In this document: piece by piece, positions 440-14,519 of the stretch
Numbering within the stretch: the first letter of the stretch is position 1
How the letters are laid out: every line of letters starts with the position of its first letter
DNA from: a bacterium
Lineage (GTDB): Bacteria > Bacillota > Clostridia > TANB77 > RGIG9151
Reading direction: 5' to 3'
Length of the DNA: 14,519 bases
Assembly (NCBI GenBank): GCA_963635575.1
Contig: CAVHFU010000035.1
Coordinates: forward strand, 1-14,519
Position numbers and translations under genes: made by a program
The notes under the pieces: generated by a model
Told to the model about the DNA's origin: nothing
The model's input: only the letters and a program-made list of their open reading frames with translations
Databases searched by the model: none

Positions 440-3400
440 ATGCATGAAATTAAACTGGGTAAAAACAAGAGAATGTCTTTTTCTAGAATTCCTGAAAAAT
501 TAGAATTACCTAATTTGATTGAAGTACAGAAAGATTCGTACGAGTGGTTTGTACGAGAAGGACTTAGAGAAGTATTTAGGGATATTTCTCCAATTACTGA
601 TTATACGGGAGGACTAATTTTAGAGTTTTTAGATTATTCTCTAAAGGATGACCCAAAGTATACTATTGCGGAATGTAAGGAAAGAGATGCTACATATGCA
701 GCTCCTCTTAGAGTTAAGATAAGACTTATTAATAAGGAGACCGGCGAAGTTAAAGAACAAGAAATCTTTATGGGAGATTTCCCTCTTATGACTGATAGTG
801 GTACATTCATAATAAACGGAGCAGAGCGTGTTGTTGTAAGCCAATTAGTACGTTCTCCTGGTGTTTACTATGGAATGAAGTATGATAAATTCGGTAAGAA
901 ATTATTTGATGCAACTGTAATTCCTAACCGTGGTGCATGGATTGAATATGAGACAGACTCTCAAGACATTTTCTATGCAAAAATAGATAGAACAAGAAAG
1001 CTTCCTGTTACAAGCTTACTTAGAGCTTTAGGTATTGTAACTGATGCTGAGATACTTGAATTATTTGATAATGATGAAAAGATTTTAGCTACATTACAAA
1101 AAGATCCTGTAAAGACACAAGATGAAGCTTTAATAGAGTTATATAAGAGACTTCGCCCTGGCGATTTGCCTACAGTAGATAGTGCTAGAAACTTACTTGA
1201 AGCTATGTTCTTTGACCCTAGAAGATATGAAATGGCTAGAGTTGGCAGATACAAATACAACAAAAAGTTATCTATTGCTACAAGAATTATGAAACACGTT
1301 GCTGCTGAAGATATTAAAAATGATGAGCAAGTGTTTGTAAAAGCAGGAGAAATCATTAACAGAGAAACAGCTTTTGAAATTCAAAATGCTGGTATTAACG
1401 TTGTATATCTTGATGTTGAAGGTAAGAAAGTTAAGGTTATCGGTAACAATACTGTTGATATTTCTAAATATGTAGATATTGATTTAAGTGAATTAGGAGT
1501 TAAGGGCTTTGTTAATTATACTATTTTAATGAATATTTTAGCTAATAATCCTAAGAAAGAAGATTTAATTGAAGCTATCAAGGAAAATCGTACAGCTTTA
1601 TCTGCTCCTACAATCACAATGGACGATATTATTGCTACAATTAGCTATTGCTTGAACCTTGAACATGGTTTAGGAAATACTGATGATATCGACCACTTAG
1701 GAAATAGAAGAATAAGAGCTGTTGGTGAATTACTTCAAAATCAATTCAGAATTGGTTTATCCAGAATGGAAAGAGTTATTCGTGAAAGAATGACAATTCA
1801 AGATATGGATATTGTTACACCACAAGCTTTAGTAAATATAAGACCTGTTTCAGCTGCGATTAAGGAATTCTTCGGAAGTTCTCAATTATCACAGTTCATG
1901 GATCAAAACAACCCTCTTGCAGAACTTACTCATAAGAGAAGATTAAGTGCATTAGGCCCTGGTGGATTAAGCCGTGATAGAGCAGGATTCGAAGTTCGTG
2001 ATATCCACTATTCTCACTATGGAAGAATGTGTCCTATTGAAACTCCAGAAGGTCCTAACATCGGACTTATCGGTTCACTTTCTTCTTATGCAAGAATTAA
2101 TGAATATGGATTTATTGAAACTCCATACAGACTTGTTAAAGATGGTGTAGTTACTGATGATATTGAATATATGGCTGCTGATGAAGAAGATGGATATATT
2201 CTAGCTACTGCAACAGAACCATTAGACGAAAATAATAGATTTGTAAACCCTAAAACTAAAGTTAGATATAAGGCTGAAATCTTGGAAGTGGAAAGCAACA
2301 AGATTGAATTAGTAGATGTTTCTCCTAGACAACTTGTTTCTGTTGCTACTGCAATGATTCCTTTCCTAGAAAACGATGATGCTAACCGTGCTCTAATGGG
2401 TGCAAACATGCAACGTCAAGCAGTGCCTTTACTTAAAACAGATTCTCCAATTGTTGGTACTGGTATGGAATACCGTGCTGCAAAGGATTCAGGAGTTTGT
2501 ATCTGTGCTAAAAATGAAGGTATTGTTGAAAAGGTTACAGCTGACAATATCGTAATTAAGAAAAAAGATGGCAACTTTGATGAATATAAATTAGTTAAGT
2601 TCAAACGTTCAAACCAAGGTACTTGTATCAACCAAAGACCTATTGTTGAAAAGGGAGAACATGTTGGTAAAGGCGATGTTATCGCAGATGGACCTTCAAC
2701 AGATAACGGAGAACTTGCGTTAGGAAAGAACATCTTAATCGGATTTATGACTTGGGAAGGTTATAACTACGAAGATGCTATTCTAATTAGTGAAAGATTA
2801 GTTAAAGACGATGTTTTAACATCTATTCATATTGAAGAATATGAATCTGAATCAAGAGATACAAAATTAGGACCTGAAGAAATAACAAGAGATATTCCAA
2901 ATGTTGGTGAAGATGCATTAAAAGATTTGGATGAACGTGGTATTATTCGTATTGGCGCTGAGGTTCATTCAGGCGATATCTTGGTTGGTAAGGTTACTCC
3001 TAAGGGAGAAACAGAACTTACAGCTGAAGAAAGATTGCTTCGTGCAATTTTCGGTGAGAAAGCTCGTGAAGTTAGAGATACATCACTAAGAGTTCCACAT
3101 GGCGAAGCCGGAATAATCGTTGATGTAAAGATATTTACAAGAGAAAACGGCGACGAAATGACTCCTGGTGTAAATGAAATTGTTAGAGTTTATATAGCTC
3201 AAAAGAGAAAGATTTCTGTCGGAGATAAAATGGCAGGACGTCACGGCAACAAGGGTGTTATTTCAAGAGTACTTCCTGAAGAAGATATGCCATTCTTACC
3301 GGATGGTACACCACTTCAAATTGTGTTAAACCCTCTAGGCGTACCAAGCCGTATGAATATCGGACAGGTGCTAGAAGTTCACTTGGGTTATGCTGCTAAA

Positions 3401-4174
3401 GCTTTAGGCTTTAAGATTGCAACTCCTGTATTTGATGGTGCACGTGAAGGTGACATTTGGGAGGCATTAAAACAAGCAGGATTAAATGAAGATGGTAAAT
3501 CTATATTATACGATGGAAGAACCGGTGAACCGTTTGATAGACCGGTTACAGTCGGATATATGTATATGTTAAAACTACATCACTTAGTAGATGATAAGAT
3601 TCATGCTCGTTCTACTGGACCTTATTCTTTAGTTACACAACAACCTCTTGGTGGTAAAGCACAATTTGGTGGACAGAGATTCGGAGAGATGGAAGTTTGG
3701 GCTCTAGAAGCTTATGGTGCTGCTTATACACTTCAAGAAATCTTGACTGTAAAATCTGATGACGTTGTTGGACGTGTTAAGACATATGAATCTATTGTTA
3801 AGGGCGAAAATGTTCCTGAAGCCGGTATTCCTGAGTCATTTAGGGTATTAGTTAAGGAATTACAAAGCTTAGGTCTTGATGTTAAGGTATATTCTAAAGA
3901 CAACGAAGAAGTTGCATTAAAAGAATATGTTGAAGATGAAATTGATGAAGAATTACCTGTTAACATTGAAGGTACAGAAGATTTACAGTTTGTTCGTCAT
4001 TATGATGAGCCTATGGATGATGTTATTATAGAAGACGCTGAAGACGATGATTTTGAAGATGAAGAAAGCGATGAAATCGATGACGATGTAGAAGAATTCG
4101 ATTTTGATGATAATGTTGTTGAGGATGATGAGCTCGGCGGAGAAGATTTAGACAATTTTGATGATGAAGAGTAA
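440..4174 (+). CDS. rpoB: DNA-directed RNA polymerase subunit beta
   Basis: 1244-aa ORF. The AGGAGG RBS at 425-430 lies 9 nt upstream of the ATG. Hallmark beta-subunit motifs are present: the N-terminal [14 protein letters not shown], the rifampicin cluster I region [34 protein letters not shown] (about 1868-1960), [16 protein letters not shown], the [13 protein letters not shown] active-site region, and [22 protein letters not shown]. It ends in an 83-aa Asp/Glu-rich tail. Confidence 0.98.
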
Positions 4175-4206
4175 ATAAAATGTATCACTATGAGAGGAGT
4201 AAAAAG

Positions 4207-7200
4207 ATGTTTGAACTAAATAATTTTGATAGTATTAAAATTAGTCTTGCTTCACCGGAGAAAATCAGAGAATGGTCAAAAGGTGAAGTTAAGAAACCTG
4301 AAACTATTAATTATAGAACATTAAAGCCAGAACGTGATGGCTTGTTCTGTGAAAAGATTTTTGGACCTCAAAAAGACTGGGAATGTCATTGTGGAAAATA
4401 CAAGAGAGTAAGATATAAAGGTATTGTCTGCGACAGATGTGGTGTTGAGGTTACTAAATCTAAAGTTAGACGTGAAAGAATGGGACATATTGAACTTGCG
4501 GCTCCTGTTTCACATATATGGTATTTTAAAGGAATTCCAAGTCGTATGGGACTTATATTAGACCTTTCTCCAAGAGCATTGGAGAAAGTCCTATACTTTG
4601 CTTCATATATCGTTATGGACGCTGGTACAACAGCATTAATGAAGAAGCAAATTTTGACTGAAAAAGAGTATGCAGAAGCAAAGGAACAATATGGTGCAAA
4701 TGCATTTAGAGTTGGAATCGGTGCTGAAGCTATTCGTGAGTTATTAAAAGAAATAGATCTAGAGTCTTTAGCTAAGGAATTAAGAGAAGAAATGAATTCT
4801 TCTTCTGGTCAAAAGAAAGTAAAGATTATTAAGAGACTTGAAGCTGTTGACTCATTTAGATTATCAGGAAACAGGCCTGAATGGATGATTTTAGACGTTG
4901 TCCCTGTTATTCCGCCAGATTTAAGACCTATGGTTCAATTAGATGGCGGTAGATTTGCAACATCTGACTTAAACGATTTGTACAGAAGAGTTATCAACAG
5001 AAACAATCGTTTAAAGAGATTGCTTGATTTAGGAGCACCTGAAATAATTGTTAGAAACGAAAAGAGAATGTTACAAGAAGCAGTAGATGCCCTAATAGAT
5101 AACGGACGTCGTGGTCGTCCTGTTACAGGCCCTGGGAACCGTCCGTTAAAGTCATTGTCTGATTTGCTAAAAGGTAAACAAGGTCGTTTTAGACAAAACT
5201 TACTAGGTAAACGTGTTGACTACTCTGGACGTTCTGTTATCGTTGTAGGACCAGAACTTAAGATTTATCAATGTGGTGTACCTCGTGAAATGGCTATTGA
5301 ATTATTTAAGCCATTTGTAATGAAAAAGTTAGTTGAAAATGGAATGGCTCATAATATTAAGAGTGCTAAGAGAATGGTTGAACGCGTTAAACCAGAAGTA
5401 TGGGATATATTAGAAGAAGTTATTAAGGAACACCCTGTAATGTTAAACCGTGCTCCGACACTTCACAGATTAGGTATCCAAGCATTCGAGCCTGTATTAG
5501 TAGAAGGTAGAGCATTAAAACTTCACCCACTAGTTTGTACAGCGTTCAACGCTGACTTCGATGGTGACCAGATGGCTATTCACCTCCCATTATCAGCAGA
5601 AGCTCAAGCTGAAACAAGATTTTTAATGTTATCTGCAAACAACTTGTTAAAACCTCAAGATGGTAAGCCGGTTACAGTTCCTACACAGGATATGGTATTA
5701 GGTAGCTATTATTTAACATATGAAACAGGTATGAACGATGATAGAGTACCGTCATACTTAGTGGATGTTCCGGAAGATGAAAGATATGCAAAAGATGCAG
5801 ATGGAAACTTTGTATTAGACGCAGAAGGTAATAAGAGATTACTTCTAAAAGCATTTAGTGATAAAGATGAGGCTTTTGAAGCATATTCTGTTAATGCTAT
5901 AAAGCTACAAGATCCGATTTTGGTGAGATTTACCAAAGAAGTGGATGGAGTAAAAAAATCTAAAGTTATTAAAACAACAATGGGTAAGATTATATTTAAT
6001 GACTCTGTTCCGCAAGATATTGGATTTGTAGACAGGAGTATTCCGGGAAACGAATTTAAGATGGAAGTTGATTTCTTAGTAACTAAGAAGGAGTTAGGAA
6101 AAATTATTGATAAATGCATTAGAAAGTACGGTTTTACAATTTCTGCTGATGTAGTAGATAAAATTAAGGCTACCGGATATAAATATTCTACACGTAGTGG
6201 TATTACAGTTGGTGTTGCGGACATGCAAATTCCTGGTGTAAAGGAACAACGTATTAAAGAGGCTGAAGCTAAGGTAGAAACTATTACAAAACAATATCAG
6301 AGAGGATTGCTTTCTAATGAGGATAGAAGAAATTCTGTTATTACAATTTGGGAAGATACAACAAAGGTTATTACACAAGACTTGATGGATGGACTAGATA
6401 GATTAAATCCAGTTTACATGATGGCTCACTCCGGTGCTCGTGGTAATGTAAACCAGATTAGACAACTTGCTGGTATTCGTGGACTTATGGCGGATACATC
6501 GGGTAAAACAGTTGAAATTCCTATTAAGTCAAACTTAAAAGAAGGACTTGACGTTTTGGAATACTTCATTTCATCACACGGTTCTAGAAAAGGTCTTGCC
6601 GACACAGCTCTTCGTACAGCGGACTCTGGTTACTTAACAAGACGTCTTGTTGATGTCAGTCAAGATGTTATTATTCGTGAGGAAGATTGCGGAACTAAGA
6701 AGGGTATTTGGGTTGAGGATGTTACTGAAGGTAAAGAAGTTATCGAACCACTTTCTGAAAGACTTGTTGGCAGAACTGCAATTGGTGATGTAGTAAATCC
6801 TGAAACAAATGAAGTAATTGTAAAAGATGATACATTAATTACTGAAGCTCAAGCTAAGGCTATTGAGAAAGCAGGAATTAAGAAAGTATATATTCGTTCA
6901 ACACTTACTTGTCGCTCAAGACATGGTATTTGTGCAAAATGTTATGGCACGAACCTAGCTACAGGCAAACCTATCAATATTGGTGAAGCAGTTGGTATTA
7001 TTGCTGCTCAATCTATCGGTGAACCTGGTACACAGCTTACAATGAGAACGTTCCATACAGGTGGTGTCGCTGCTGCCGGCGGTGATATTACACACGGTTT
7101 ACCACGTGTTGAGGAAATTTTTGAAGCTAGAAAGCCAAAGGGACTTGCTGTTATTACTGAAATTAAAGGTAATGTTACAGTTAGTGATAACAAGAAGAAA

Positions 7201-7839
7201 CGTGAAGTTATCGTTACTGACCCTGATGGAGATGCAAAGACATACTTAATTCCTTTCGGCTCAAGATTAAAAGTTCGTGATGGCGATTTTGTAGAAGCCG
7301 GAGATGAGTTAACAGAAGGTTCTGTAAATCCACATGACATTATAAGAATTAAAGGTGTTGACGGAGTTCAATTATATATGCTTCGTGAAGTTCAAAAGGT
7401 TTATAGAATGCAGGGTGTTGATATCAATGATAAACACATTGAAGTTATTGTTCGTCAAATGCTTCGTAAGATTAAAGTTGATGAAGCTGGAGATACAAAC
7501 TTCTTACCTGGAATTCTTGTAGATATGTTTGAATTTGAAAGTGAAAACGAAAGAGTTATAGCTGAAGGTGGAACACCGGCTACTGGTAAACAAACATTAT
7601 TGGGCATCACAAAAGCAGCCTTAACAACAGAATCATTCTTATCAGCAGCATCATTCCAAGAAACAACAAGAGTTTTAACTGATGCAGCTATTAAAGGTAA
7701 GGTTGATCCATTAGTTGGACTTAAAGAAAACGTTATCATTGGTAAGTTAATTCCTGCCGGAACTGGTATGGCTAGATATAAAGATATAAACATTCAAACA
7801 GTTAAGGAAGAAAAAAGTGAAGACGAAATAGTCGACTAA
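4207..7839 (+). CDS. rpoC: DNA-directed RNA polymerase subunit beta-prime
   Basis: The ORF track opens at 4180, but ATG 4207 is preferred. It is preceded by GAGAGGAG (about 4191-4198) at proper spacing, and it gives the canonical N-terminus [24 protein letters not shown]. The N-terminal Zn-binding motif [20 protein letters not shown] is present. The catalytic Mg motif [10 protein letters not shown] has its NADFDGD core at 5548-5568. The bridge-helix and trigger-loop regions ([26 protein letters not shown]; [16 protein letters not shown]) are also present. The product is 1210 aa from 4207. Confidence 0.97.
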
Positions 7840-7887
7840 AAAAAAGCTGTAAAGAACTAAATTTCGAGTTCTTTACAGCTTTTTTTT
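7838..7887. terminator. Bidirectional Rho-independent terminator shared by rpoC (+) and the convergent small gene (-)
   Basis: A perfect 14-bp stem: AGCTGTAAAGAACT (7845-7858) pairs with AGTTCTTTACAGCT (7867-7880) around an 8-nt loop (7859-7866). It is flanked by an 8-nt A-run (7838-7845) on the left and a 7-nt T-run (7881-7887) on the right. It therefore reads as hairpin plus U-tract on both strands. It starts at the rpoC stop (7837-7839) and overlaps the minus-strand gene's stop (7886-7888). Confidence 0.85.
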
Positions 7888-8047
7888 AGTCCTTACAAAT
7901 AAATGTTTCGCAACAAGTTCCATCAGATGTATGAGCTTTACCTGACATATTGTTTACGTCTAATTGTTTTGCTGTGCAAAAATGATTTTCCCAATATGTG
8001 CATGTGTCTACACTGCAATGGACTGGCATTCTATTTGGATTTCCCAT
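7886..8047 (-). CDS. Small Cys-rich protein, DUF1540-like (53 aa)
   Basis: The minus-strand ORF is trimmed to the third in-frame ATG (8047), the only one with a usable RBS. AAGGAG has its complement at about 8057-8062, and GGAG is followed by a 9-nt spacer. The protein is MGNPNRMPVHCSVDTCTYWENHFCTAKQLDVNNMSGKAHTSDGTCCETFICKD. The pattern V-x-C-S-V-x2-C-x-Y-W-x4-C-x-A-x2-L-x-V ... T-C-C-x-T-F matches my recollection of the DUF1540 (PF07561) family common in Bacilli and Clostridia. It has 6 Cys in 53 aa. The family assignment is from memory and no HMM was run. Confidence 0.6.
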   Translation of the reverse strand: MGNPNRMPVHCSVDTCTYWENHFCTAKQLDVNNMSGKAHTSDGTCCETFICKD

Positions 8048-8069
8048 ATAATTCATCTCCTTTTTTATT

Positions 8070-8083
8070 ATTTTGTACAAAAT
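8070..8083. promoter_or_regulatory. 14-bp perfect palindrome ATTTTGTACAAAAT, candidate operator in the divergent intergenic region
   Basis: Read directly: 8070-8083 is its own reverse complement (7/7 pairs). It lies 23-36 nt upstream of the DUF1540-like start codon and about 110 nt upstream of the NRPS start. No known regulator box could be assigned with confidence. It resembles the AT-rich CodY-type dyad AATTTTCWGAAAATT only loosely, because the centre differs. Confidence 0.25.
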
Positions 8084-8128
8084 TTAATAAATATATGCTA
8101 AATACTTGATTAAAGTTTTATGGAAATA

Positions 8129-8154
8129 TTGACGAATAACATTTGGAGTATAAT
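8129..8154 (+). promoter_or_regulatory. Candidate promoter for the NRPS gene (perfect -10, mis-spaced -35)
   Basis: A perfect TATAAT at 8149-8154 lies 37 nt upstream of the NRPS ATG. TTGACG at 8129-8134 is a 5/6 -35 match, but the spacer is only 14 nt, which is far from the 17-nt optimum. The -35 assignment is therefore doubtful, and the promoter may depend on an activator or use another -35. Confidence 0.3.
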
Positions 8155-8191
8155 TTTAGCAATTATATATTGAATTAGGGAGGCAGTAAAA

Positions 8192-11100
8192 ATGGATAAA
8201 AAAATGTATACTTTGTCACGTCCGCAGAAAACTATTTGGTATATGGAGAAATTGTATAAAGATTCTGGAATGACAAACATTTGTGGAACAGTAAGATTTA
8301 AAATTGGAGTTGATTTTGAACTTTTATGTAAAGCAATTAACATTTTTGTTTCTGCTAATGATGCTATGCGTGTTAAAGTGCTGGAGGACAATGGAACCCC
8401 ATATCAATATATAAAGGATTATAAAGAGTTTGAAGTTAAATTTGTTGATTTCTCTGATAAAACTAAAGAAGAGTTTTATAGATGGGAAGAAATTGAGAGC
8501 AAGAAACCAATTGATACTTCAAGTAGCGAATTGTTTGAATTCATAATGATTAAATTTAGTGATTCAGAGGGCGGATATCTTATAAAAATTAACCATATCA
8601 TTAGTGATGCGTGGAGCATTATGCTTTTGGTAAGCGACATAAAAGATATATATTCCGAGTTAATTTATGGAAATTTTAGGAAATATGAAAAGCCTTCTTA
8701 TTTAGATTATATAGACTCGGAGGAAGAATATTTTAGTTCAAAGCGTTATATTTCGGATAAAGAATATTGGGAAGAGAAGTTAAAAGATTTCGAAGAAGTT
8801 ACAACATTAAAAGACAATGTAGGAGATAAAAGCTTTACTAACGCTACCAGAAGGACGTTTTTGATACCTGAAAAATTAAACAGAAAAATGAAGTCTTTTT
8901 GCGAAGAAAATAAAGTGTCGGAATATGCATTATTTATAGGTGCATTGGCTATGTACATAAATAGAGTTAAAAATAAAGAAAATATATTGCTTGGTACATC
9001 TTTATTAAATAGAACTGGAATAAAGGAAAAAGAAACGATGGGAATGTTTGCTAGTACGGCCGTTCCACTAAAAGTTGATATTAAAGATGATACAAACTTT
9101 AGCATGTTTATAAAAGAAATATCAAAAGAAATTTTGTCTGTTTTGAGGCATCAAAAATACCCTTATGAAGATATGCTTAAAATAGCTCAAAACGCCAATA
9201 AATCAGCTGACAAAATATTTGATATAGTTCTTAACTATCAAAATGCAAAAGGAACTAAGGGCGTTTTAGAGCATGAAGTATCGTATTCTACAAGATGGAA
9301 TTTCAATGGGGAGCAAATCGAGTCCTTAATTGTTAATGTAAATGATAGAGATAATGAAGGTAGATTAATAATAGATTATGATTTCTTAAACCATATGTTT
9401 TGTATTAAGGAAATAGAGTTTTTACATCAACATATTATTAATATTTTATGGCATGCATTAGACAATCCGGAGAAAGCGATATCAAAGCTAGAAATGCTTT
9501 CAGAGGATGAAAAAAGGCAAATTCTATTTGATTTTAATGATACAGAAGCAACTTATAATAAGAATATTACAATACACGAATTATTTGAAGAAATAGTAAG
9601 AAAATATCCGAATAATATTGCTGTCAAATTTGAAAATGAGACTATCACTTATAGAGAGCTAAATGAAAAGGCAAATAGTTTAGCTAGAACTTTAAGAAAG
9701 TTGGGTGTAAGGCGTCAGGATATCATTGCAGTTATAATGTATAAGTCAATAAATACGATAATTGCCACTTTGGGTATTCTTAAAGCCGGGGCAGCATACT
9801 TGCCAATTGATCCTGATTTTCCAAGCGATAGGAAGAACTTTATGATTACTGACTGCAATTCAAGAGTACTGATTACTGAACAAAAGTTAAAAAACGAGAA
9901 TCCTTTTGATGGAACAGTTATATGTTTAGACGAGGAAGGAGTATTCTGTGAAGATATAACTAATTTAGAAAATATAAATGAATCCGCTGATTTGATTTAT
10001 ATAATTTATACATCCGGTTCTACGGGTAATCCAAAAGGAGTTATGTTAGAACACAGAAATGTTGTAAGGCTTCTATTTAACAGTAAATTCCAGTATGATT
10101 TTAATGAGAATGACGTTTGGACAATGTTTCACTCATATTGTTTTGATTTTTCGGTGTGGGAAATGTATGGTGCACTGCTTTATGGCGGAAAACTTATAAT
10201 TATATCTAAGGAAACCTCAAAAGACTTAAATAAATTTGTCAAATTGCTTAGAGAAGAAAATGTTAGTGTACTTAATCAAACACCGGCAATGTTTTATAAT
10301 GTAATTAATGAAGAAATGTTATATAATGACGCTGATTTAAGCATAAGGTATGTTATTTTTGGGGGAGAGGCATTAAATCCTAGTAAATTAAAACCATTTA
10401 GAGAGAAATATCGAAAATGTAAATTAATTAATATGTATGGAATAACTGAGACAACGGTTCATGTTACATTTAAAGAGCTGAGTGATGATGACATAGAAAG
10501 TGGGAAGAGTAATATAGGTAGGCCTATTCCAACATTAAAAACATATATAATGGATAAAAATTTGAACTTATTGCCAATTGGAATACCAGGGGAGATTTGT
10601 GTTTCCGGTGATGGAGTTGCGAGGGGGTATTTGAATCAAAAAGAACTAACCGATAAAAAATTTGTTGTTAATCCGTATAGCCCAAATAAAAGATTATATC
10701 GTTCCGGTGACTTAGGAAGATTTTTTGCAAGAGGAGATATGGAATACTTAGGAAGGATTGACAGTCAAGTTAAGGTTAGAGGTTTTAGAGTTGAAATAGG
10801 TGAGATTGAACGAAATATATCTAGTTTTCCTAAGGTAAAAGATGTTGTAGTTATTCCTAAAAAGGACGAAAATGAAAAGAGCTATTTAGTTGCTTATTTA
10901 GTATGTACACAGGCGATAGATATTCAGGAATTAAAAAAACATTTAGGGAAATTTATGCCGACATATATGATTCCTTCATATTTTGTATTTATGGAAAAAT
11001 TACCAATTAATGCCAACGGAAAGATAAATAGAAAGGAATTGCCTGAACCTTTAAGAGAAATAAAAGAGGATGTACCATATGTTGAACCTAGAGATAAAAC

Positions 11101-12511
11101 CGACAAAGTTTTGCAAACCGTTTTCTCAGAGGTTTTAAAGCTAGAGAATATAGGAATAGATAATGATTTTTTTGCTATGGGAGGAGATTCTTTAACGGTT
11201 ATTCAAGCATTGACTAAATTATATAAATATGATTTAGGAATTAGTGCTACGGATTTTTATAAGTATCCTACAATTAGGTTGCTAAGTAATAAAGTTAAAA
11301 ATAATATACAATTAGATGATGATATGCAAAGAGAGTCTTTTGCAGTGGTCCCTGATTTCAAATTATCAGAGAAGTTAACTAATAGGGAAATGAAAAATGT
11401 TTTAGTTACGGGCGCAACCGGTTTCTTAGGTAGTCATATTGTAAAGAATTTGTTAGATAATACTGAGGCTAAAGTTTATTGTTTGGTTAGAGGGAGCTCT
11501 CAAACTGAAGCAAGGGAAAGGTTTTTTAAAGTATTTAAATTTTATTTTAATACTCAATATTGCGAAGATAGAATAGAAATTATTAACGGGGATATTACTA
11601 TGGAAGATCTTGGAGTAGACTCTGAAATGTCTTATAAATTGGGCAGAACAATAGACAATATTATACATACAGCTGCACTTGTTAAATATTATGGGGATTA
11701 CAAAGAATTTGAAACAATTAATATAGCGGGTGTTAGAAATGTAATGATTTTCGCAAAAAAATATGACATAAAACTTAATCACATTTCTACAATAGGTATT
11801 TCAGGGAGCTATTTAGTAAGAAATAACATAAATTCAAAAGAGCTTACAGAAAAAGATTTATATGTTGGTCAAAATTACACTGAAAATGCTTATGTTAAGA
11901 CTAAATTCTTAGCTGAAAATATGCTATTGAATGAGATTAGTAATGGACTAAAATTGACTATATTTAGAATGGGAAATTTAACAGGAAGGTATAGCGATGG
12001 GTATTTTCAAAAGAATGCCAAGGATAATGCTTTTTATAATATATTAAAATCTATAATTGAACTAAAAAAAGTCTCTTCAGACATGGATGATGTAGATGTT
12101 GAGCTTACGCCAGTTGATATGGCTGCAAATTGTGTGGTAAACATTGCTAAAACTAATGAATGCGATTCTAGAATTTTTCATATAACAAATTATAAAGAAC
12201 CACATTTTGAAAAAATAAGACATATGTTAGTAGAACTTGGCTTTGATATTCAAGTTATTAGTAACGATGAATTTAATAGGTACATAAAAGAAGTGGCAGG
12301 TAAGGACGAGGAAAGTGAAATACTTAGAGGTATAATTACAGATATGGGGACAGATGGTAGTCTGAATTATAATATACCTGTAAAAGCGACTGCAAATATT
12401 ACAGCAAAATATCTAAAAATGTTAGGATTCGAATGGCCTGATATAGAAATTGAATACGTAAAAAGGATAGTGGATTATTTAAATTCAATAAATTATTTTG
12501 AAATTAAATAA
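8192..12511 (+). CDS. Single-module non-ribosomal peptide synthetase, C-A-T-R (condensation / adenylation / thiolation / terminal thioester reductase)
   Basis: 1439-aa ORF. The RBS AGGGAGG (8177-8183) lies 8 nt before ATG 8192. C domain (about 8204-9495): C1 LSRPQKTIWYMEKL, C3 INHIISDAWS (N134-H135...D139, 8591-8611), C5 MGMFASTAVPLKV, C6 HQKYPYED. A domain (about 9566-11040): A1 ITYRELN, A2 LKAGAAYLPIDP, A3 YTSGSTGNPKG (10007-10039), A4 FDFSVWE (10142-10162), A5 NMYGITETT, A6 GEICVSGDGVARGYL, A7 YRSGDLG, A8 GRIDSQVKVRGFRVEIGEIE, A9 MPTYMIP, A10 NGKINRKEL. T domain (about 11093-11300): FFAMGGDSL with the Ppant Ser1000 at 11189-11191. R domain (about 11396-12508): Rossmann VLVTGATGFLGSHI (11399-11440), GDITMEDLG, and YVKTK (Y1234/K1238, 11891-11905). 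Confidence 0.93.
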   Translation: MDKKMYTLSRPQKTIWYMEKLYKDSGMTNICGTVRFKIGVDFELLCKAINIFVSANDAMRVKVLEDNGTPYQYIKDYKEFEVKFVDFSDKTKEEFYRWEEIESKKPIDTSSSELFEFIMIKFSDSEGGYLIKINHIISDAWSIMLLVSDIKDIYSELIYGNFRKYEKPSYLDYIDSEEEYFSSKRYISDKEYWEEKLKDFEEVTTLKDNVGDKSFTNATRRTFLIPEKLNRKMKSFCEENKVSEYALFIGALAMYINRVKNKENILLGTSLLNRTGIKEKETMGMFASTAVPLKVDIKDDTNFSMFIKEISKEILSVLRHQKYPYEDMLKIAQNANKSADKIFDIVLNYQNAKGTKGVLEHEVSYSTRWNFNGEQIESLIVNVNDRDNEGRLIIDYDFLNHMFCIKEIEFLHQHIINILWHALDNPEKAISKLEMLSEDEKRQILFDFNDTEATYNKNITIHELFEEIVRKYPNNIAVKFENETITYRELNEKANSLARTLRKLGVRRQDIIAVIMYKSINTIIATLGILKAGAAYLPIDPDFPSDRKNFMITDCNSRVLITEQKLKNENPFDGTVICLDEEGVFCEDITNLENINESADLIYIIYTSGSTGNPKGVMLEHRNVVRLLFNSKFQYDFNENDVWTMFHSYCFDFSVWEMYGALLYGGKLIIISKETSKDLNKFVKLLREENVSVLNQTPAMFYNVINEEMLYNDADLSIRYVIFGGEALNPSKLKPFREKYRKCKLINMYGITETTVHVTFKELSDDDIESGKSNIGRPIPTLKTYIMDKNLNLLPIGIPGEICVSGDGVARGYLNQKELTDKKFVVNPYSPNKRLYRSGDLGRFFARGDMEYLGRIDSQVKVRGFRVEIGEIERNISSFPKVKDVVVIPKKDENEKSYLVAYLVCTQAIDIQELKKHLGKFMPTYMIPSYFVFMEKLPINANGKINRKELPEPLREIKEDVPYVEPRDKTDKVLQTVFSEVLKLENIGIDNDFFAMGGDSLTVIQALTKLYKYDLGISATDFYKYPTIRLLSNKVKNNIQLDDDMQRESFAVVPDFKLSEKLTNREMKNVLVTGATGFLGSHIVKNLLDNTEAKVYCLVRGSSQTEARERFFKVFKFYFNTQYCEDRIEIINGDITMEDLGVDSEMSYKLGRTIDNIIHTAALVKYYGDYKEFETINIAGVRNVMIFAKKYDIKLNHISTIGISGSYLVRNNINSKELTEKDLYVGQNYTENAYVKTKFLAENMLLNEISNGLKLTIFRMGNLTGRYSDGYFQKNAKDNAFYNILKSIIELKKVSSDMDDVDVELTPVDMAANCVVNIAKTNECDSRIFHITNYKEPHFEKIRHMLVELGFDIQVISNDEFNRYIKEVAGKDEESEILRGIITDMGTDGSLNYNIPVKATANITAKYLKMLGFEWPDIEIEYVKRIVDYLNSINYFEIK

Positions 12512-12533
12512 TACGAAAGAAAGAGTGAAAAAT

Positions 12534-14519
12534 ATGAGAAAAAGGTCTGATGTATGGGGAATTATAAATATTTATAATATTATAATAGTAATATTGGGAA
12601 TAGGATTTTATTTTTTACTACCTATTTTGTTAAATTATGCACCAGGGTCATATAATAGTTATTTTGAGACTCAAATAGATTCGGGAATGAATTATTTTGT
12701 TCAGTTTTTCTTAGCAATACTTGCAGTAATTATTATTGTTGACACTCTCGTATGGTTTCAATTTAAAGAAATCAAGAGTTTGGAAGGGATAACTTTAGAT
12801 GATAATACACGAGATAAAGAATGTAAAATAAAAGCAAAATGCTTTAGGTTACCATTTAGATTATACTTATATGAAATAACTATAATTCCAGTAATAGTCG
12901 CTATTGTCTTGTGGATAACTAAAACTGAAATAGGGTTAATTGTAAAAACAACGTTGATAATATTTTTATTTGCCACAGTCCTTTCTACATCAGCATACGT
13001 GTTTACTAGAAATAAAATGAAACAGCTTTTCAACAGGATAAACAATTTTGAAATATGTGGAGGAAAGTCTAATATAAGTCTTGCTAGTAAAATATTTTTG
13101 CAAATTTTTCCGCTTTTTTTGGTGATTTCAATTTTCTTATCATTTTTAGGATATGTAAGAATGATTAATGAAAAAGGACTAATGCGATTCGAAGAATATA
13201 CAGTAAGATTAGATGAAAGTTTGAGTCATAACATCGCCACAGAAAAAGAATTGTTTGAATCAGCAAATAAGATAGTTAGAATAAATCCTAATGACGAGAT
13301 GTTTATAATACGAAATAATGAAGTTCTTTATAATGAAGGCAGTGAATTAAGTGGTTTTTTCATAAAATATGCAACAATTTTAGGAGAGGAATATAATGGA
13401 CATTTGTACGACTATTATGGTTCAGATATTCAGGGAACAGCAGAATATATAAAGATAGAAAATAACAATTATATAGTAGGCGTAAAATATAATTTAGTAT
13501 CTCAAGAAATGATTTTGGTTTTTGTTTGCGGTACAGTTTTTATGTTGCTTTTGACGATATTTGTACTTGTATTTTTAAGCAAGGACTTATCGGACGATAT
13601 CGGTGAGGTAGGAAAGTATTTGTATAAGCTTTCTAATCAAGATAGCATAGATTACGATAAAAAACTTCCTGTTACCTCTAATGATGAAATTGGTGAGTTG
13701 GTTATCTCTTTCAATAAAATTCTTGATTTAGAAAAGAACAACATTGAAACTATGTCTAGAAACCAAGAAATTTTAGTAGAACAAGAACGTCTTTCGTCTT
13801 TAGGACAATTAATTGGTGGTATTGCACACAACTTAAAAACACCTATAATGTCTATTGCCGGAGCTTTAGAAGGGGTAGAGGATTTAATAAAAGAGTATGA
13901 TGAATCAATAGATGATAGCCAGGTAACAAAGGAGGATCATCATCAAATTGCAGGTGAAATGAAAGAATGGATAAGCAAAATAAGACCGTATTTATCATAT
14001 ATGACTGAAGTTATCGATGCGGTAAAGGGGCAAGCTGTTTCAATGAATGCTTCAACCGTGGGAGAATTCTCAGCAGAGGAACTTATTGCAAGAACTCAGA
14101 TTTTAATGAAAAATGAGTTAAAACGACGTCATTGTAATTTAAGTCTTGATTTAAATATTGGCGAGAAAACACAAATTAAAGGTGAAATAAGTGCAATAGT
14201 TCAAGTTATGGATAACTTAATAATTAATGCTATGGATGCTTATGGAGAAAAGGGCGGAAATATAGACATTAAGGTAAGAGAAGATGAGGAGAAGATATAT
14301 ATAGAGGTAGCTGATTTGGCAGGTGGAATATCCGAAACTGTTAAAGACAAATTATTTAAGGAGATGATTACTTCAAAAGGCAAGAACGGAACAGGTTTAG
14401 GACTTTATATGTGCTATTCGACTATTAAAGGAAAGTTTGATGGTGACATGTGGTTTGAAAGTAAAGATGGAGTAGGTACGACTTTCCATATTATATTAAA
14501 TAAGCTAAAGATTTTATAA
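12534..14519 (+). CDS. Membrane sensor histidine kinase (6 predicted TM, extracytoplasmic loop domain, HAMP, HisKA/DHp, HATPase_c)
   Basis: The ORF track opens at TTG 12498, overlapping the NRPS stop. ATG 12534 is preferred: it gives MRKRSDVWG..., is preceded by the purine-rich GAAAGAAAGAGTG, and lies 22 nt after the NRPS stop. Hydrophobic segments lie at about aa 8-33, 54-76, 108-129, 133-156, 184-207 and 326-348, with K/R-rich loops consistent with positive-inside topology. A HAMP-like segment runs SKDLSDDIGEVGKYL...NDEIGELVISFNKIL (about 13578-13735). The H-box is SLGQLIGGIAHNLKTPI, with the phospho-acceptor His codon at 13827-13829. The N-box is VMDNLIINAMDAY, the G1 box is VADLAGGI and the G2 box is GKNGTGLGLYM. 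The stop TAA at 14517-14519 is the last triplet of the window, so the CDS is complete. Confidence 0.9.
   Translation: MRKRSDVWGIINIYNIIIVILGIGFYFLLPILLNYAPGSYNSYFETQIDSGMNYFVQFFLAILAVIIIVDTLVWFQFKEIKSLEGITLDDNTRDKECKIKAKCFRLPFRLYLYEITIIPVIVAIVLWITKTEIGLIVKTTLIIFLFATVLSTSAYVFTRNKMKQLFNRINNFEICGGKSNISLASKIFLQIFPLFLVISIFLSFLGYVRMINEKGLMRFEEYTVRLDESLSHNIATEKELFESANKIVRINPNDEMFIIRNNEVLYNEGSELSGFFIKYATILGEEYNGHLYDYYGSDIQGTAEYIKIENNNYIVGVKYNLVSQEMILVFVCGTVFMLLLTIFVLVFLSKDLSDDIGEVGKYLYKLSNQDSIDYDKKLPVTSNDEIGELVISFNKILDLEKNNIETMSRNQEILVEQERLSSLGQLIGGIAHNLKTPIMSIAGALEGVEDLIKEYDESIDDSQVTKEDHHQIAGEMKEWISKIRPYLSYMTEVIDAVKGQAVSMNASTVGEFSAEELIARTQILMKNELKRRHCNLSLDLNIGEKTQIKGEISAIVQVMDNLIINAMDAYGEKGGNIDIKVREDEEKIYIEVADLAGGISETVKDKLFKEMITSKGKNGTGLGLYMCYSTIKGKFDGDMWFESKDGVGTTFHIILNKLKIL

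Follow-up and report, generated by a model that had tools for sequence, protein, structure and literature searches.

A single-module nonribosomal peptide synthetase and an adjacent membrane histidine kinase in uncultured Clostridia: a candidate small-molecule synthase and its receptor

The synthetase-kinase locus

The window analysed here is a stretch of 14,519 nucleotides (contig CAVHFU010000035.1 of GenBank assembly GCA_963635575.1) from an uncultured member of the Clostridia. Its 14.5 kb are low in G+C (27-38%) and encode rpoB, rpoC, a small DUF1540 open reading frame (ORF), a nonribosomal peptide synthetase (NRPS) and a sensor histidine kinase, and nothing further (Table 1). The last two genes are the subject of this report. 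They lie on the same strand, with the kinase gene starting 22 nt after the NRPS stop codon and its own stop codon forming the end of the window. No terminator-like site between them was found in a terminator scan, which returned no terminator at all and also missed the hairpin after rpoC that folding confirmed. The conserved pairing of NRPS and kinase genes is established by searches from both sides (see below), and gene order makes the two genes one operon-like two-gene unit that recurs across uncultured Clostridia of gut and sediment.

Table 1. Features of the window and of cassettes occupying the mutS2...bipA locus of relatives. Coordinates are window positions unless another locus is named.
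Feature	Coordinates	Strand	Basis
rpoB	440-4174		Pfam
rpoC	4180-7839		Pfam
Bidirectional terminator hairpin after rpoC and DUF1540 gene	7838..7887	.	RNA fold -26.2 kcal/mol, z = -10.1
DUF1540 small Cys-rich ORF, 56 aa, divergent from NRPS	7886..8056	-	Pfam PF07561, E 6e-12
Intergenic region upstream of NRPS, presumed promoter, ribosome-binding site GGGAGG	8057..8191	+	sequence
NRPS gene, 1439 aa, single module C-A-T-R, ATG start	8192..12511	+	ORF call; Pfam; NCBIfam
Condensation (C) domain, aa 4-445, starter-like, C3 motif NHIISDA	8201..9526	+	Pfam PF00668, E 6e-79
Adenylation (A) domain, aa 465-944, code DFWNIGMVHK	9584..11023	+	Pfam; alignment to GrsA-PheA positions 235-517
Carrier (T/PCP) domain, phosphopantetheine site Ser1000 in GGDSL	11108..11290	+	Pfam PP-binding, motif
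Thioester reductase (R) domain, aa 1069-1435	11396..12496	+	NAD_binding_4; TIGR01746
Hypervariable block, A-T-R plus kinase sensor half, relative to Ser-type alleles L167 and L168	9542..13658	+	amino-acid identity
Sensor histidine kinase gene, 661 aa	12534..14519	+	HAMP (weak), HisKA (weak), HATPase_c (clear)
Kinase sensor half, aa 1-356	12534..13601	+	hydropathy/charge distribution; AlphaFold2 model
Kinase cytoplasmic half, aa 357-661: HAMP-like linker, DHp, CA	13602..14516	+	family alignments; Foldseek
Cassette slot, mutS2...bipA: two-module C-A-T-C-A-T-R enzyme, with kinase and regulator	L172 8001-15458
Cassette slot, mutS2...bipA: N-methylating C-A(MT)-T-R enzyme	L173 8001-13220
Cassette slot, mutS2...bipA: six-TM-type kinase sensor instead of HisKA_7TM	L169 5620-13551

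Pfam recovers the condensation (C), adenylation (A), carrier (T) and reductase (R) domains of the NRPS in one intact ORF with all catalytic residues present, just as a first-pass annotation made from the sequence by itself had read them, and an exact copy of the protein is encoded on Logan contig SRR13434665_18781. The A domain matches AMP-binding (PF00501) at aa 465-814 and AMP-binding_C (PF13193) at aa 871-944 (E 2e-93), passes the NCBIfam model TIGR01733 (438.8 bits, cut-off 317.4), and has the core motifs A3 to A10 (SGSTGNPK at A3, FDFS at A4, NMYGITE at A5, GRIDSQVKVRGFRVE at A8 and PINANGKINR at A10) together with the equivalent of Lys517. The carrier domain matches PP-binding (PF00550) at aa 973-1033 (E 1e-12) and has the motif DFFAMGGDSL. 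In the R domain, which matches NAD_binding_4 (PF07993) at aa 1072-1314 (E 1e-49) and scores 203.5 bits with TIGR01746, slightly below the 213.35 cut-off, the GATGFLG motif and Arg1100 are accompanied by a complete Thr/Tyr/Lys triad (Thr1200 and Tyr1234-x3-Lys1238). This domain was expected to be catalytically competent and still looks so; its best solved relatives are the T-R didomain 6VTJ (E 5e-64) and the R domains of AusA (E 3e-51) and MxaA (E 5e-32). The core motifs are readable throughout, as had been stated, with a departure at C3, where Asn takes the place of the initial His in HHxxxDG. His135 and Asp139, the catalytic residues of that motif, are kept, and the same N-H variant is present in 4 of 41 intact homologues. 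His135, Asp139, Ser1000, Gly1074, Gly1080, Arg1100, Tyr1234 and Lys1238 are invariant in the 41 non-redundant homologues, and by its ORF, domains and residues the NRPS gene looks fully functional.

The substrate of the A domain was predicted by aligning it to GrsA-PheA and reading the ten specificity positions, a procedure that returns DAWTIAAICK for the GrsA control, as it should. The resulting DFWNIGMVHK is the canonical threonine code (Stachelhaus code), which predicts a threonine-specific enzyme. Compared with two-module relatives, the C domain shares 32-50% identity with their N-terminal C1 domains and only 20-27% with their internal C2 domains, and it therefore groups with the initiating type, whose role is to acylate the first amino acid. 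A starter-like C domain points to N-acylation of the product, and the type of the R domain predicts NAD(P)H-dependent release as an aldehyde or alcohol; the product would be N-acyl-L-threoninal, or the corresponding alcohol after further reduction. The small N-acylated amino aldehyde or alcohol of the first-pass annotation is supported by this analysis, to which the threonine code and the starter-like character of the C domain are added.

Genes for a FadD-like acyl-CoA synthetase are found in relatives: 11 of 34 related loci have one upstream of the NRPS in divergent orientation, and in L089-L091 it is placed between NRPS and kinase. The example in L144 (3903-5699, minus strand) has no counterpart in the window, and that in L091 (8119-9739, plus strand) is split into two ORFs. 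The window itself contains no phosphopantetheinyl transferase (PPTase), loading enzyme, carrier protein, MbtH-like protein, thioesterase or exporter, an inventory that was given correctly at the outset. No conserved PPTase, exporter or carrier-protein partner is found among the related loci either; an Sfp-type PPTase gene is seen only in L170, from a Dehalobacter genome, where it immediately precedes the NRPS gene (4949-5614, plus strand).

The kinase has a membrane-embedded sensor half and a cytoplasmic transmitter. Hydropathy and charge predict an N-terminus inside the cell, five transmembrane (TM) segments at aa 15-33, 55-73, 110-128, 133-151 and 187-205, and a sixth at aa 327-345; TM 5 and TM 6 enclose an acidic outside loop of 121 residues (aa 206-326). 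An AlphaFold2 model built with 94 homologues has a confidence (pLDDT) of about 80-90 over aa 10-340 and presents the loop as a helix plus a five-stranded sheet. Foldseek matches the model to WalK, ZraS and the DHp-CA (dimerization/histidine phosphotransfer and catalytic) core of HK853, and these matches are dominated by the generic DHp-CA core, with no fold assigned to the sensor half by the search. The H-box is GGIAHNLKTPIMS, with His432 in the DHp domain, and alignments show almost no variation in the H-box and DHp region among any of the cassettes described below. The wider kinase family is large: of the scored candidates, 6783 clusters reach E <= 1e-30.

Recurrence of the pair and its usual third gene

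The pairing was approached from both of its members. On the NRPS side, a scan of species-representative genomes and a set of close single-module relatives were used, and neighbouring kinases were scored by phmmer. Homologous kinases (E 1e-90 to 1e-211) directly follow single-module relatives in rpoC, cysS and mutS2 neighbourhoods. A near-twin of the window NRPS (L007, 97% identity), from a metagenome-assembled genome (MAG) of an uncultured Clostridia bacterium in a Hadza gut sample, has the same gene order, rpoBC-DUF1540-NRPS-kinase. Relatives at 45-57% identity lie after cysS and a GNAT gene (L002) or after mutS2 (L003-L006), with the kinase gene next in each, and the kinase adjoins the NRPS in all close single-module relatives examined. 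In the genome scan, further pairs are seen in Hungateiclostridiaceae, Oscillospiraceae and uncultured Clostridium MAGs, and a kinase accompanies six of the eight stand-alone single-module C-A-T-R genes; this count includes L009, whose kinase is cut by the contig end and recognisable as HisKA_7TM. No kinase of the window family accompanies the remaining NRPS loci of the scan, and weak generic kinase matches (E 1e-10 to 1e-13) occur only in L023 and L037.

On the kinase side, metagenome contigs were scanned with the kinase alignment alone, yielding 80 loci from human gut, rumen, bioreactor and sediment. Eight are uninformative, having less than 800 nt of upstream DNA, and an NRPS adjoins the kinase in 69 of the remaining 72, in at least four unrelated chromosomal neighbourhoods. 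In 56 loci this is a complete C-A-T-R gene of 1400-1475 aa, and in 13 the gene is incomplete, interrupted by a frameshift or by the end of the contig. Most of the 56 complete genes immediately precede the kinase, with a gap of -31 to +80 nt, and in a few loci the order is reversed. Removal of near-duplicates leaves 41 independent NRPS-kinase pairs. The window NRPS had at first been called an orphan with no partner genes; that description does not survive a kinase gene immediately downstream and an NRPS beside nearly every informative kinase retrieved.

The three loci that have no NRPS encode soluble proteins of 318 aa that match the cytoplasmic half of the kinase only (L154 2861-3817, L155 389-1345 and L159 441-1397; 71-73% identity to kinase aa 389-657). 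With neither a sensor half nor an NRPS nearby, they may be truncated or free-standing transmitter modules.

A third gene usually completes the cassette. Of 69 informative loci, 54 have after the kinase a gene for a protein with a receiver (REC) and an HD_5 domain, in some cases with an intervening DUF3369 domain, and the HD, HHE and GYP motifs are present in all 51 regulators inspected. These are the architectures of RpfG and RpfY, which are response regulators of the cyclic di-GMP (c-di-GMP) phosphodiesterase type (10.1101/2021.11.05.467447). The place that this regulator usually occupies after the kinase is taken in L007 by ORFs of 203 and 144 aa (16418-17029 and 17115-17549) and in L167 by one of 198 aa (6731-7327), all without Pfam matches.

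Variation of the NRPS and of the kinase sensor half

Two loci, L167 and L168, have the same DUF1540-NRPS-kinase arrangement as the window and an A domain with the code DVWHFSLVDK (Ser), and comparison with them divides the two proteins sharply. The C domain is 85-95% identical to that of the window (83-90% in a separate comparison by domain) and kinase residues 376-661 are 90-100% identical, whereas the intervening A-T-R segment is only 25-55% identical (25-52% for L167 alone) and kinase residues 1-375 about 50% (49-56% for L167). The A domains (43-44%) and R domains (39-40%) of these loci are as far from those of the window as are those of unrelated family members. L167 and L168 themselves, which share the Ser code, retain 84-100% identity in the A domain and 61-87% in the sensor despite a higher synonymous divergence. 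Since these two are synonymously farther apart and yet keep both A domain and sensor, the divergence between the window and L167 is read as a switch of type and not as elapsed time.

The NRPSs of L167 (323-4597, P0008) and L168 (6565-10836, P0024) are thus domain mosaics relative to the window. Recent recombination was considered as the origin of the mosaic and is disfavoured: between the window and L167, about 45-50% of four-fold degenerate sites are different even within the conserved flanks, which are therefore kept by selection rather than by recent exchange.

A similar pattern is seen at the mutS2...bipA locus. Between L006, with a one-module Thr enzyme, and L172, with a two-module enzyme of Ser and Pro-like codes, identity is 93% for MutS2, 96% for BipA, 96% for the regulator and 90% for the kinase transmitter, and falls to 62% for C1, 45% for R and 45% for the kinase sensor. 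The same slot also accommodates an N-methylating enzyme in L173 and a different type of kinase sensor in L169 (Table 1). The A-domain codes of the cassettes range over Thr, Ser, Asn-like, Gly-like, Lys-like and further types, and differing codes are found at a single conserved site in the chromosome that is flanked by HtrA-like and Tex-like genes.

Covariation across the 41 independent pairs was assessed with Mantel statistics, which carry no correction for phylogeny and are supportive only. Sensor identity tracks A-domain identity when transmitter and C domain are controlled for (partial r 0.22, p 5e-4) and also tracks C-domain identity (partial r 0.40), and the transmitter does not track the A domain (r -0.05). 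Sensor identity is 50% in pairs of the same code versus 27% in pairs of different codes.

The surroundings of the NRPS-kinase unit in the window are simple. The hairpin downstream of rpoC can terminate both rpoC and the DUF1540 gene and would form the upstream boundary of the unit. A DUF1540 gene is found likewise upstream of the NRPS in L167 and, syntenically, in L007, so that it may travel with the cassette in the window lineage; in L007 it is separated from rpoC by a 1.2-kb insertion (8491-9690) that is not in the window (corresponding positions 7843-7881) and encodes a 351-aa DapB_N/DAP_DH_C-like protein. The GGGAGG ribosome-binding site is 8 nt upstream of the NRPS ATG. Promoter-like sites score no higher than shuffled background in a promoter scan, and a riboswitch or other known RNA upstream of the NRPS was sought in an Rfam E-value scan of the whole window, which gave sub-threshold matches only, on the rpoC terminator hairpin. 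The G+C content is 35-38% in rpoB and rpoC (440-7839) and 27-31% across NRPS and kinase (7840-14519). In many Firmicutes rpoC is followed by rpsL and rpsG, which are not present after rpoC in the window. Either the lower G+C or this gene order could reflect acquisition of the cassette at this site.

Interpretation and comparison with known systems

We propose that the NRPS and the adjacent kinase are a small-molecule synthase and its membrane receptor, with an N-acyl-threoninal or N-acyl-threoninol made by the first and sensed by the second, a reading for which we see the case as about evenly balanced. The starter-type C domain would use an acyl thioester, probably supplied by general metabolism as a fatty acyl-CoA, to N-acylate L-threonine that the A domain has loaded onto the carrier domain. 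The R domain would then release N-acyl-threoninal with NAD(P)H, or N-acyl-threoninol after a second reduction, as its domain type suggests. Comparative genomics suggests that this lipid-like product could be sensed by the six-TM and extracytoplasmic sensor half, and that the kinase would in turn phosphorylate a receiver, which in most relatives would be the c-di-GMP phosphodiesterase-type REC-HD-GYP regulator encoded immediately downstream. In the window lineage the regulator would have to be encoded elsewhere. That the receiver of the window kinase is encoded elsewhere in the genome is plausible, as the near-invariance of the H-box and DHp region across cassettes makes a similar receiver plausible in this lineage. 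The cassette may thus be a two-component small-molecule signalling system with an NRPS as its synthase.

Several observations weigh against this proposal. Beyond domain content, its support is all comparative. No REC-HD-GYP gene lies next to the kinase in the window lineage, either within 1.4 kb downstream in L007 or in L002, L167 and L168, and two stand-alone C-A-T-R genes of the genome scan, L013 and L037, are without a kinase. The variable block is contiguous DNA, and a single recombination event could swap A-T-R and sensor together with no functional coupling between them; moreover, sensor domains evolve fast in general, and the covariation statistics are phylogenetically uncorrected, as stated. 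The window and L002 both have the Thr code and share only 26-46% sensor identity. Six-TM/HAMP and HisKA_7TM sensors accompany similar NRPSs at one locus, and two sensor architectures are unexpected if the ligands are similar. The starter assignment of the C domain is one of position and of similarity to other N-terminal C domains, as matches in the PDB do not separate the subtypes: starter domains (RzmA 7C1K, SrfAA 8F7H and CDA 4JN3) score about the same as elongation domains (BacC, Txo1/2, LgrA and TycC).

One alternative is that the kinase responds to a different stimulus (a nutrient, or the state of the envelope or membrane) and that the NRPS makes a lipid effector in coordination with c-di-GMP signalling, for instance an N-acyl amino alcohol or surfactant that acts on membranes; the product would then be an output and not a ligand. 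Co-transcription shows co-expression only, polytopic sensors that carry a PAS/Cache-like loop outside the cytoplasm are of a generic kind, and both the FadD-like partner, which suggests a lipid product, and the pair of sensor architectures just mentioned would fit such an arrangement. It would, however, not lead one to expect close relatives at one locus to switch head group among Thr, Ser, Asn-like, Gly-like, Lys-like, dipeptide and N-methylated forms, and it leaves unexplained why sensor half and NRPS change together while transmitter and regulator stay constant. We consider it unlikely, about as much so as the alternative that follows.

A product directed outward is the next alternative. 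The NRPS could release an N-acyl amino aldehyde whose reactivity is aimed at enzymes of the host or of competitors, for instance as a protease inhibitor, with the kinase only a regulator of this pathway or unrelated to it. The terminal R domain is of the AusA type, the protein has 31-45% identity to C-A-T-C-A-T-R proteins that are common in gut metagenomes (31-50% per domain), and its nearest relative comes from a Hadza gut MAG. For the two-module gut family, aldehyde warheads are reportedly established as protease inhibitors by the 2017 work of Guo et al. Against an outward aldehyde, kinase adjacency is near-obligate from both search directions and across unrelated neighbourhoods, the kinase sensor half co-varies with the NRPS between constant flanks, no exporter is conserved with the cassette, and the cassette is found in sediment, bioreactor and Dehalobacter genomes as well as in host-associated ones. 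The usual third gene, moreover, encodes a c-di-GMP phosphodiesterase-type regulator and not a DNA-binding one. A plain cluster-situated regulator of NRPS transcription is disfavoured because the output domain is an enzyme and because the region upstream of the NRPS is without a c-di-GMP or other riboswitch. This explanation, too, we regard as improbable. That the NRPS gene is a decaying or silent relic is very improbable: the Asn at C3, the lack of a PPTase or response regulator in view and a G+C content below that of the adjacent rpoBC genes could be taken that way, but the 4.3-kb ORF is uninterrupted with every catalytic residue in place, the C3 variant recurs among intact homologues with catalytic His and Asp present, and 97% identity is maintained to the independent MAG copy in L007, where about 13% of four-fold degenerate sites differ.

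Of the known systems, the synthase-receptor arrangement proposed here is closest in logic to the RpfF/RpfC/RpfG module of Xanthomonas, which responds to diffusible signal factor (DSF) and whose genes, likewise adjacent, encode the synthase of a lipid-like compound, a histidine kinase with several membrane spans and a REC-HD-GYP regulator. The resemblance is without membership. The cassette synthase is an NRPS with reductive release, whereas RpfF is a crotonase making a cis-2-unsaturated fatty acid; the cassette kinase, unlike RpfC, is not a hybrid and its sensor domains are unrelated; the hosts are anaerobic Firmicutes; and the window, which ends with the kinase gene, includes no regulator gene. 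The alpha-hydroxyketone systems CqsA/CqsS (of CAI-1) and LqsA/LqsS are also alike in that a synthase gene adjoins the gene for a multi-TM sensor kinase and in that the signal is a fatty-acyl-derived amino or hydroxy compound, as is predicted for the cassette product. They differ in having a synthase that is a pyridoxal phosphate-dependent acyl-CoA transferase and in having hybrid phosphorelay kinases, and there is no sequence relationship.

In its pattern of variation the cassette is like the agr system (AgrB-AgrD-AgrC-AgrA) of staphylococci and clostridia, where a contiguous hypervariable stretch that determines the signal and includes the sensor half lies between conserved flanks, the transmitter among them. 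The cassette signal would, however, be an NRPS product in place of a ribosomal thiolactone peptide (AgrD processed by AgrB), its output is an HD-GYP protein and not a LytTR transcription factor, and no AgrD, AgrB or LytTR genes are in the cassette.

Among NRPSs, the first-pass annotation had offered as precedents the terminal-R enzymes of gut Clostridia and MxcG of myxochelin biosynthesis; relationship to unnamed C-A-T-C-A-T-R proteins of Clostridia holds at the identities given above, and membership in the named families does not. The R domain is closest to that of 6VTJ and of AusA from S. aureus, and the two-module enzyme of L172 fills the same cassette slot as one-module ones. The window NRPS differs from the AusA and gut-Clostridia pyrazinone family in its single module and in an N-terminal C domain that implies a blocked amine; because it is a single N-acylated module, neither a dipeptide nor a pyrazinone is expected from it. 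Membership of AusA was rejected, with one module instead of two and 798 bits against a cut-off of 2500 for model NF047350. To our knowledge, no kinase partner has been reported for the published two-module terminal-R NRPS families. MxcG has the same four-domain order and overall length, and its NCBIfam model aligns end to end (aa 4-1378), but membership was likewise rejected, with 617 bits against a cut-off of 2300 for NF038078 and a Thr rather than a Lys code. No aryl-carrier or dihydroxybenzoate genes lie near the window NRPS, its neighbours being rpoC, DUF1540 and the kinase. No near-identical homologue was found in a characterised cluster, a finding that would have made this a known system, and the close relatives are all unnamed proteins from MAGs or metagenomes. 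A full-text literature search found no description of an NRPS-kinase-HD-GYP cassette, which appears to be undescribed so far.

A broader proposal, which we put forward only tentatively, is that the window is the threonine-type allele of a widespread cassette of anaerobic Firmicutes, in which an N-acyl amino aldehyde or alcohol would act as an autoinducer, the kinase as its receptor and the REC-HD-GYP regulator as the link to c-di-GMP. Synthase specificity (amino acid, module number and N-methylation) and sensor half would have diversified together into 'dialects' comparable to agr pherotypes.

Small-molecule signalling between cells of gut Clostridia is poorly known apart from agr peptides and autoinducer 2 (AI-2), and what the terminal-reductase NRPSs abundant in the gut do in nature is still debated. 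The organism is uncultured, but the pair is compact (two genes, 6.3 kb) and has in L167 a Ser-type sister allele whose C domain and kinase transmitter are near-identical to those of the window, so that the hypothesis is testable by gene synthesis. If the NRPS does make the ligand for a neighbouring kinase that feeds into c-di-GMP, this would be a new chemical class of autoinducer, and the terminal-reductase NRPSs, or this branch of them, would gain a self-directed instead of a host-directed function. The cassettes would then also provide dozens of natural pairs of synthase and receptor specificity for testing and for engineering orthogonal signalling channels.

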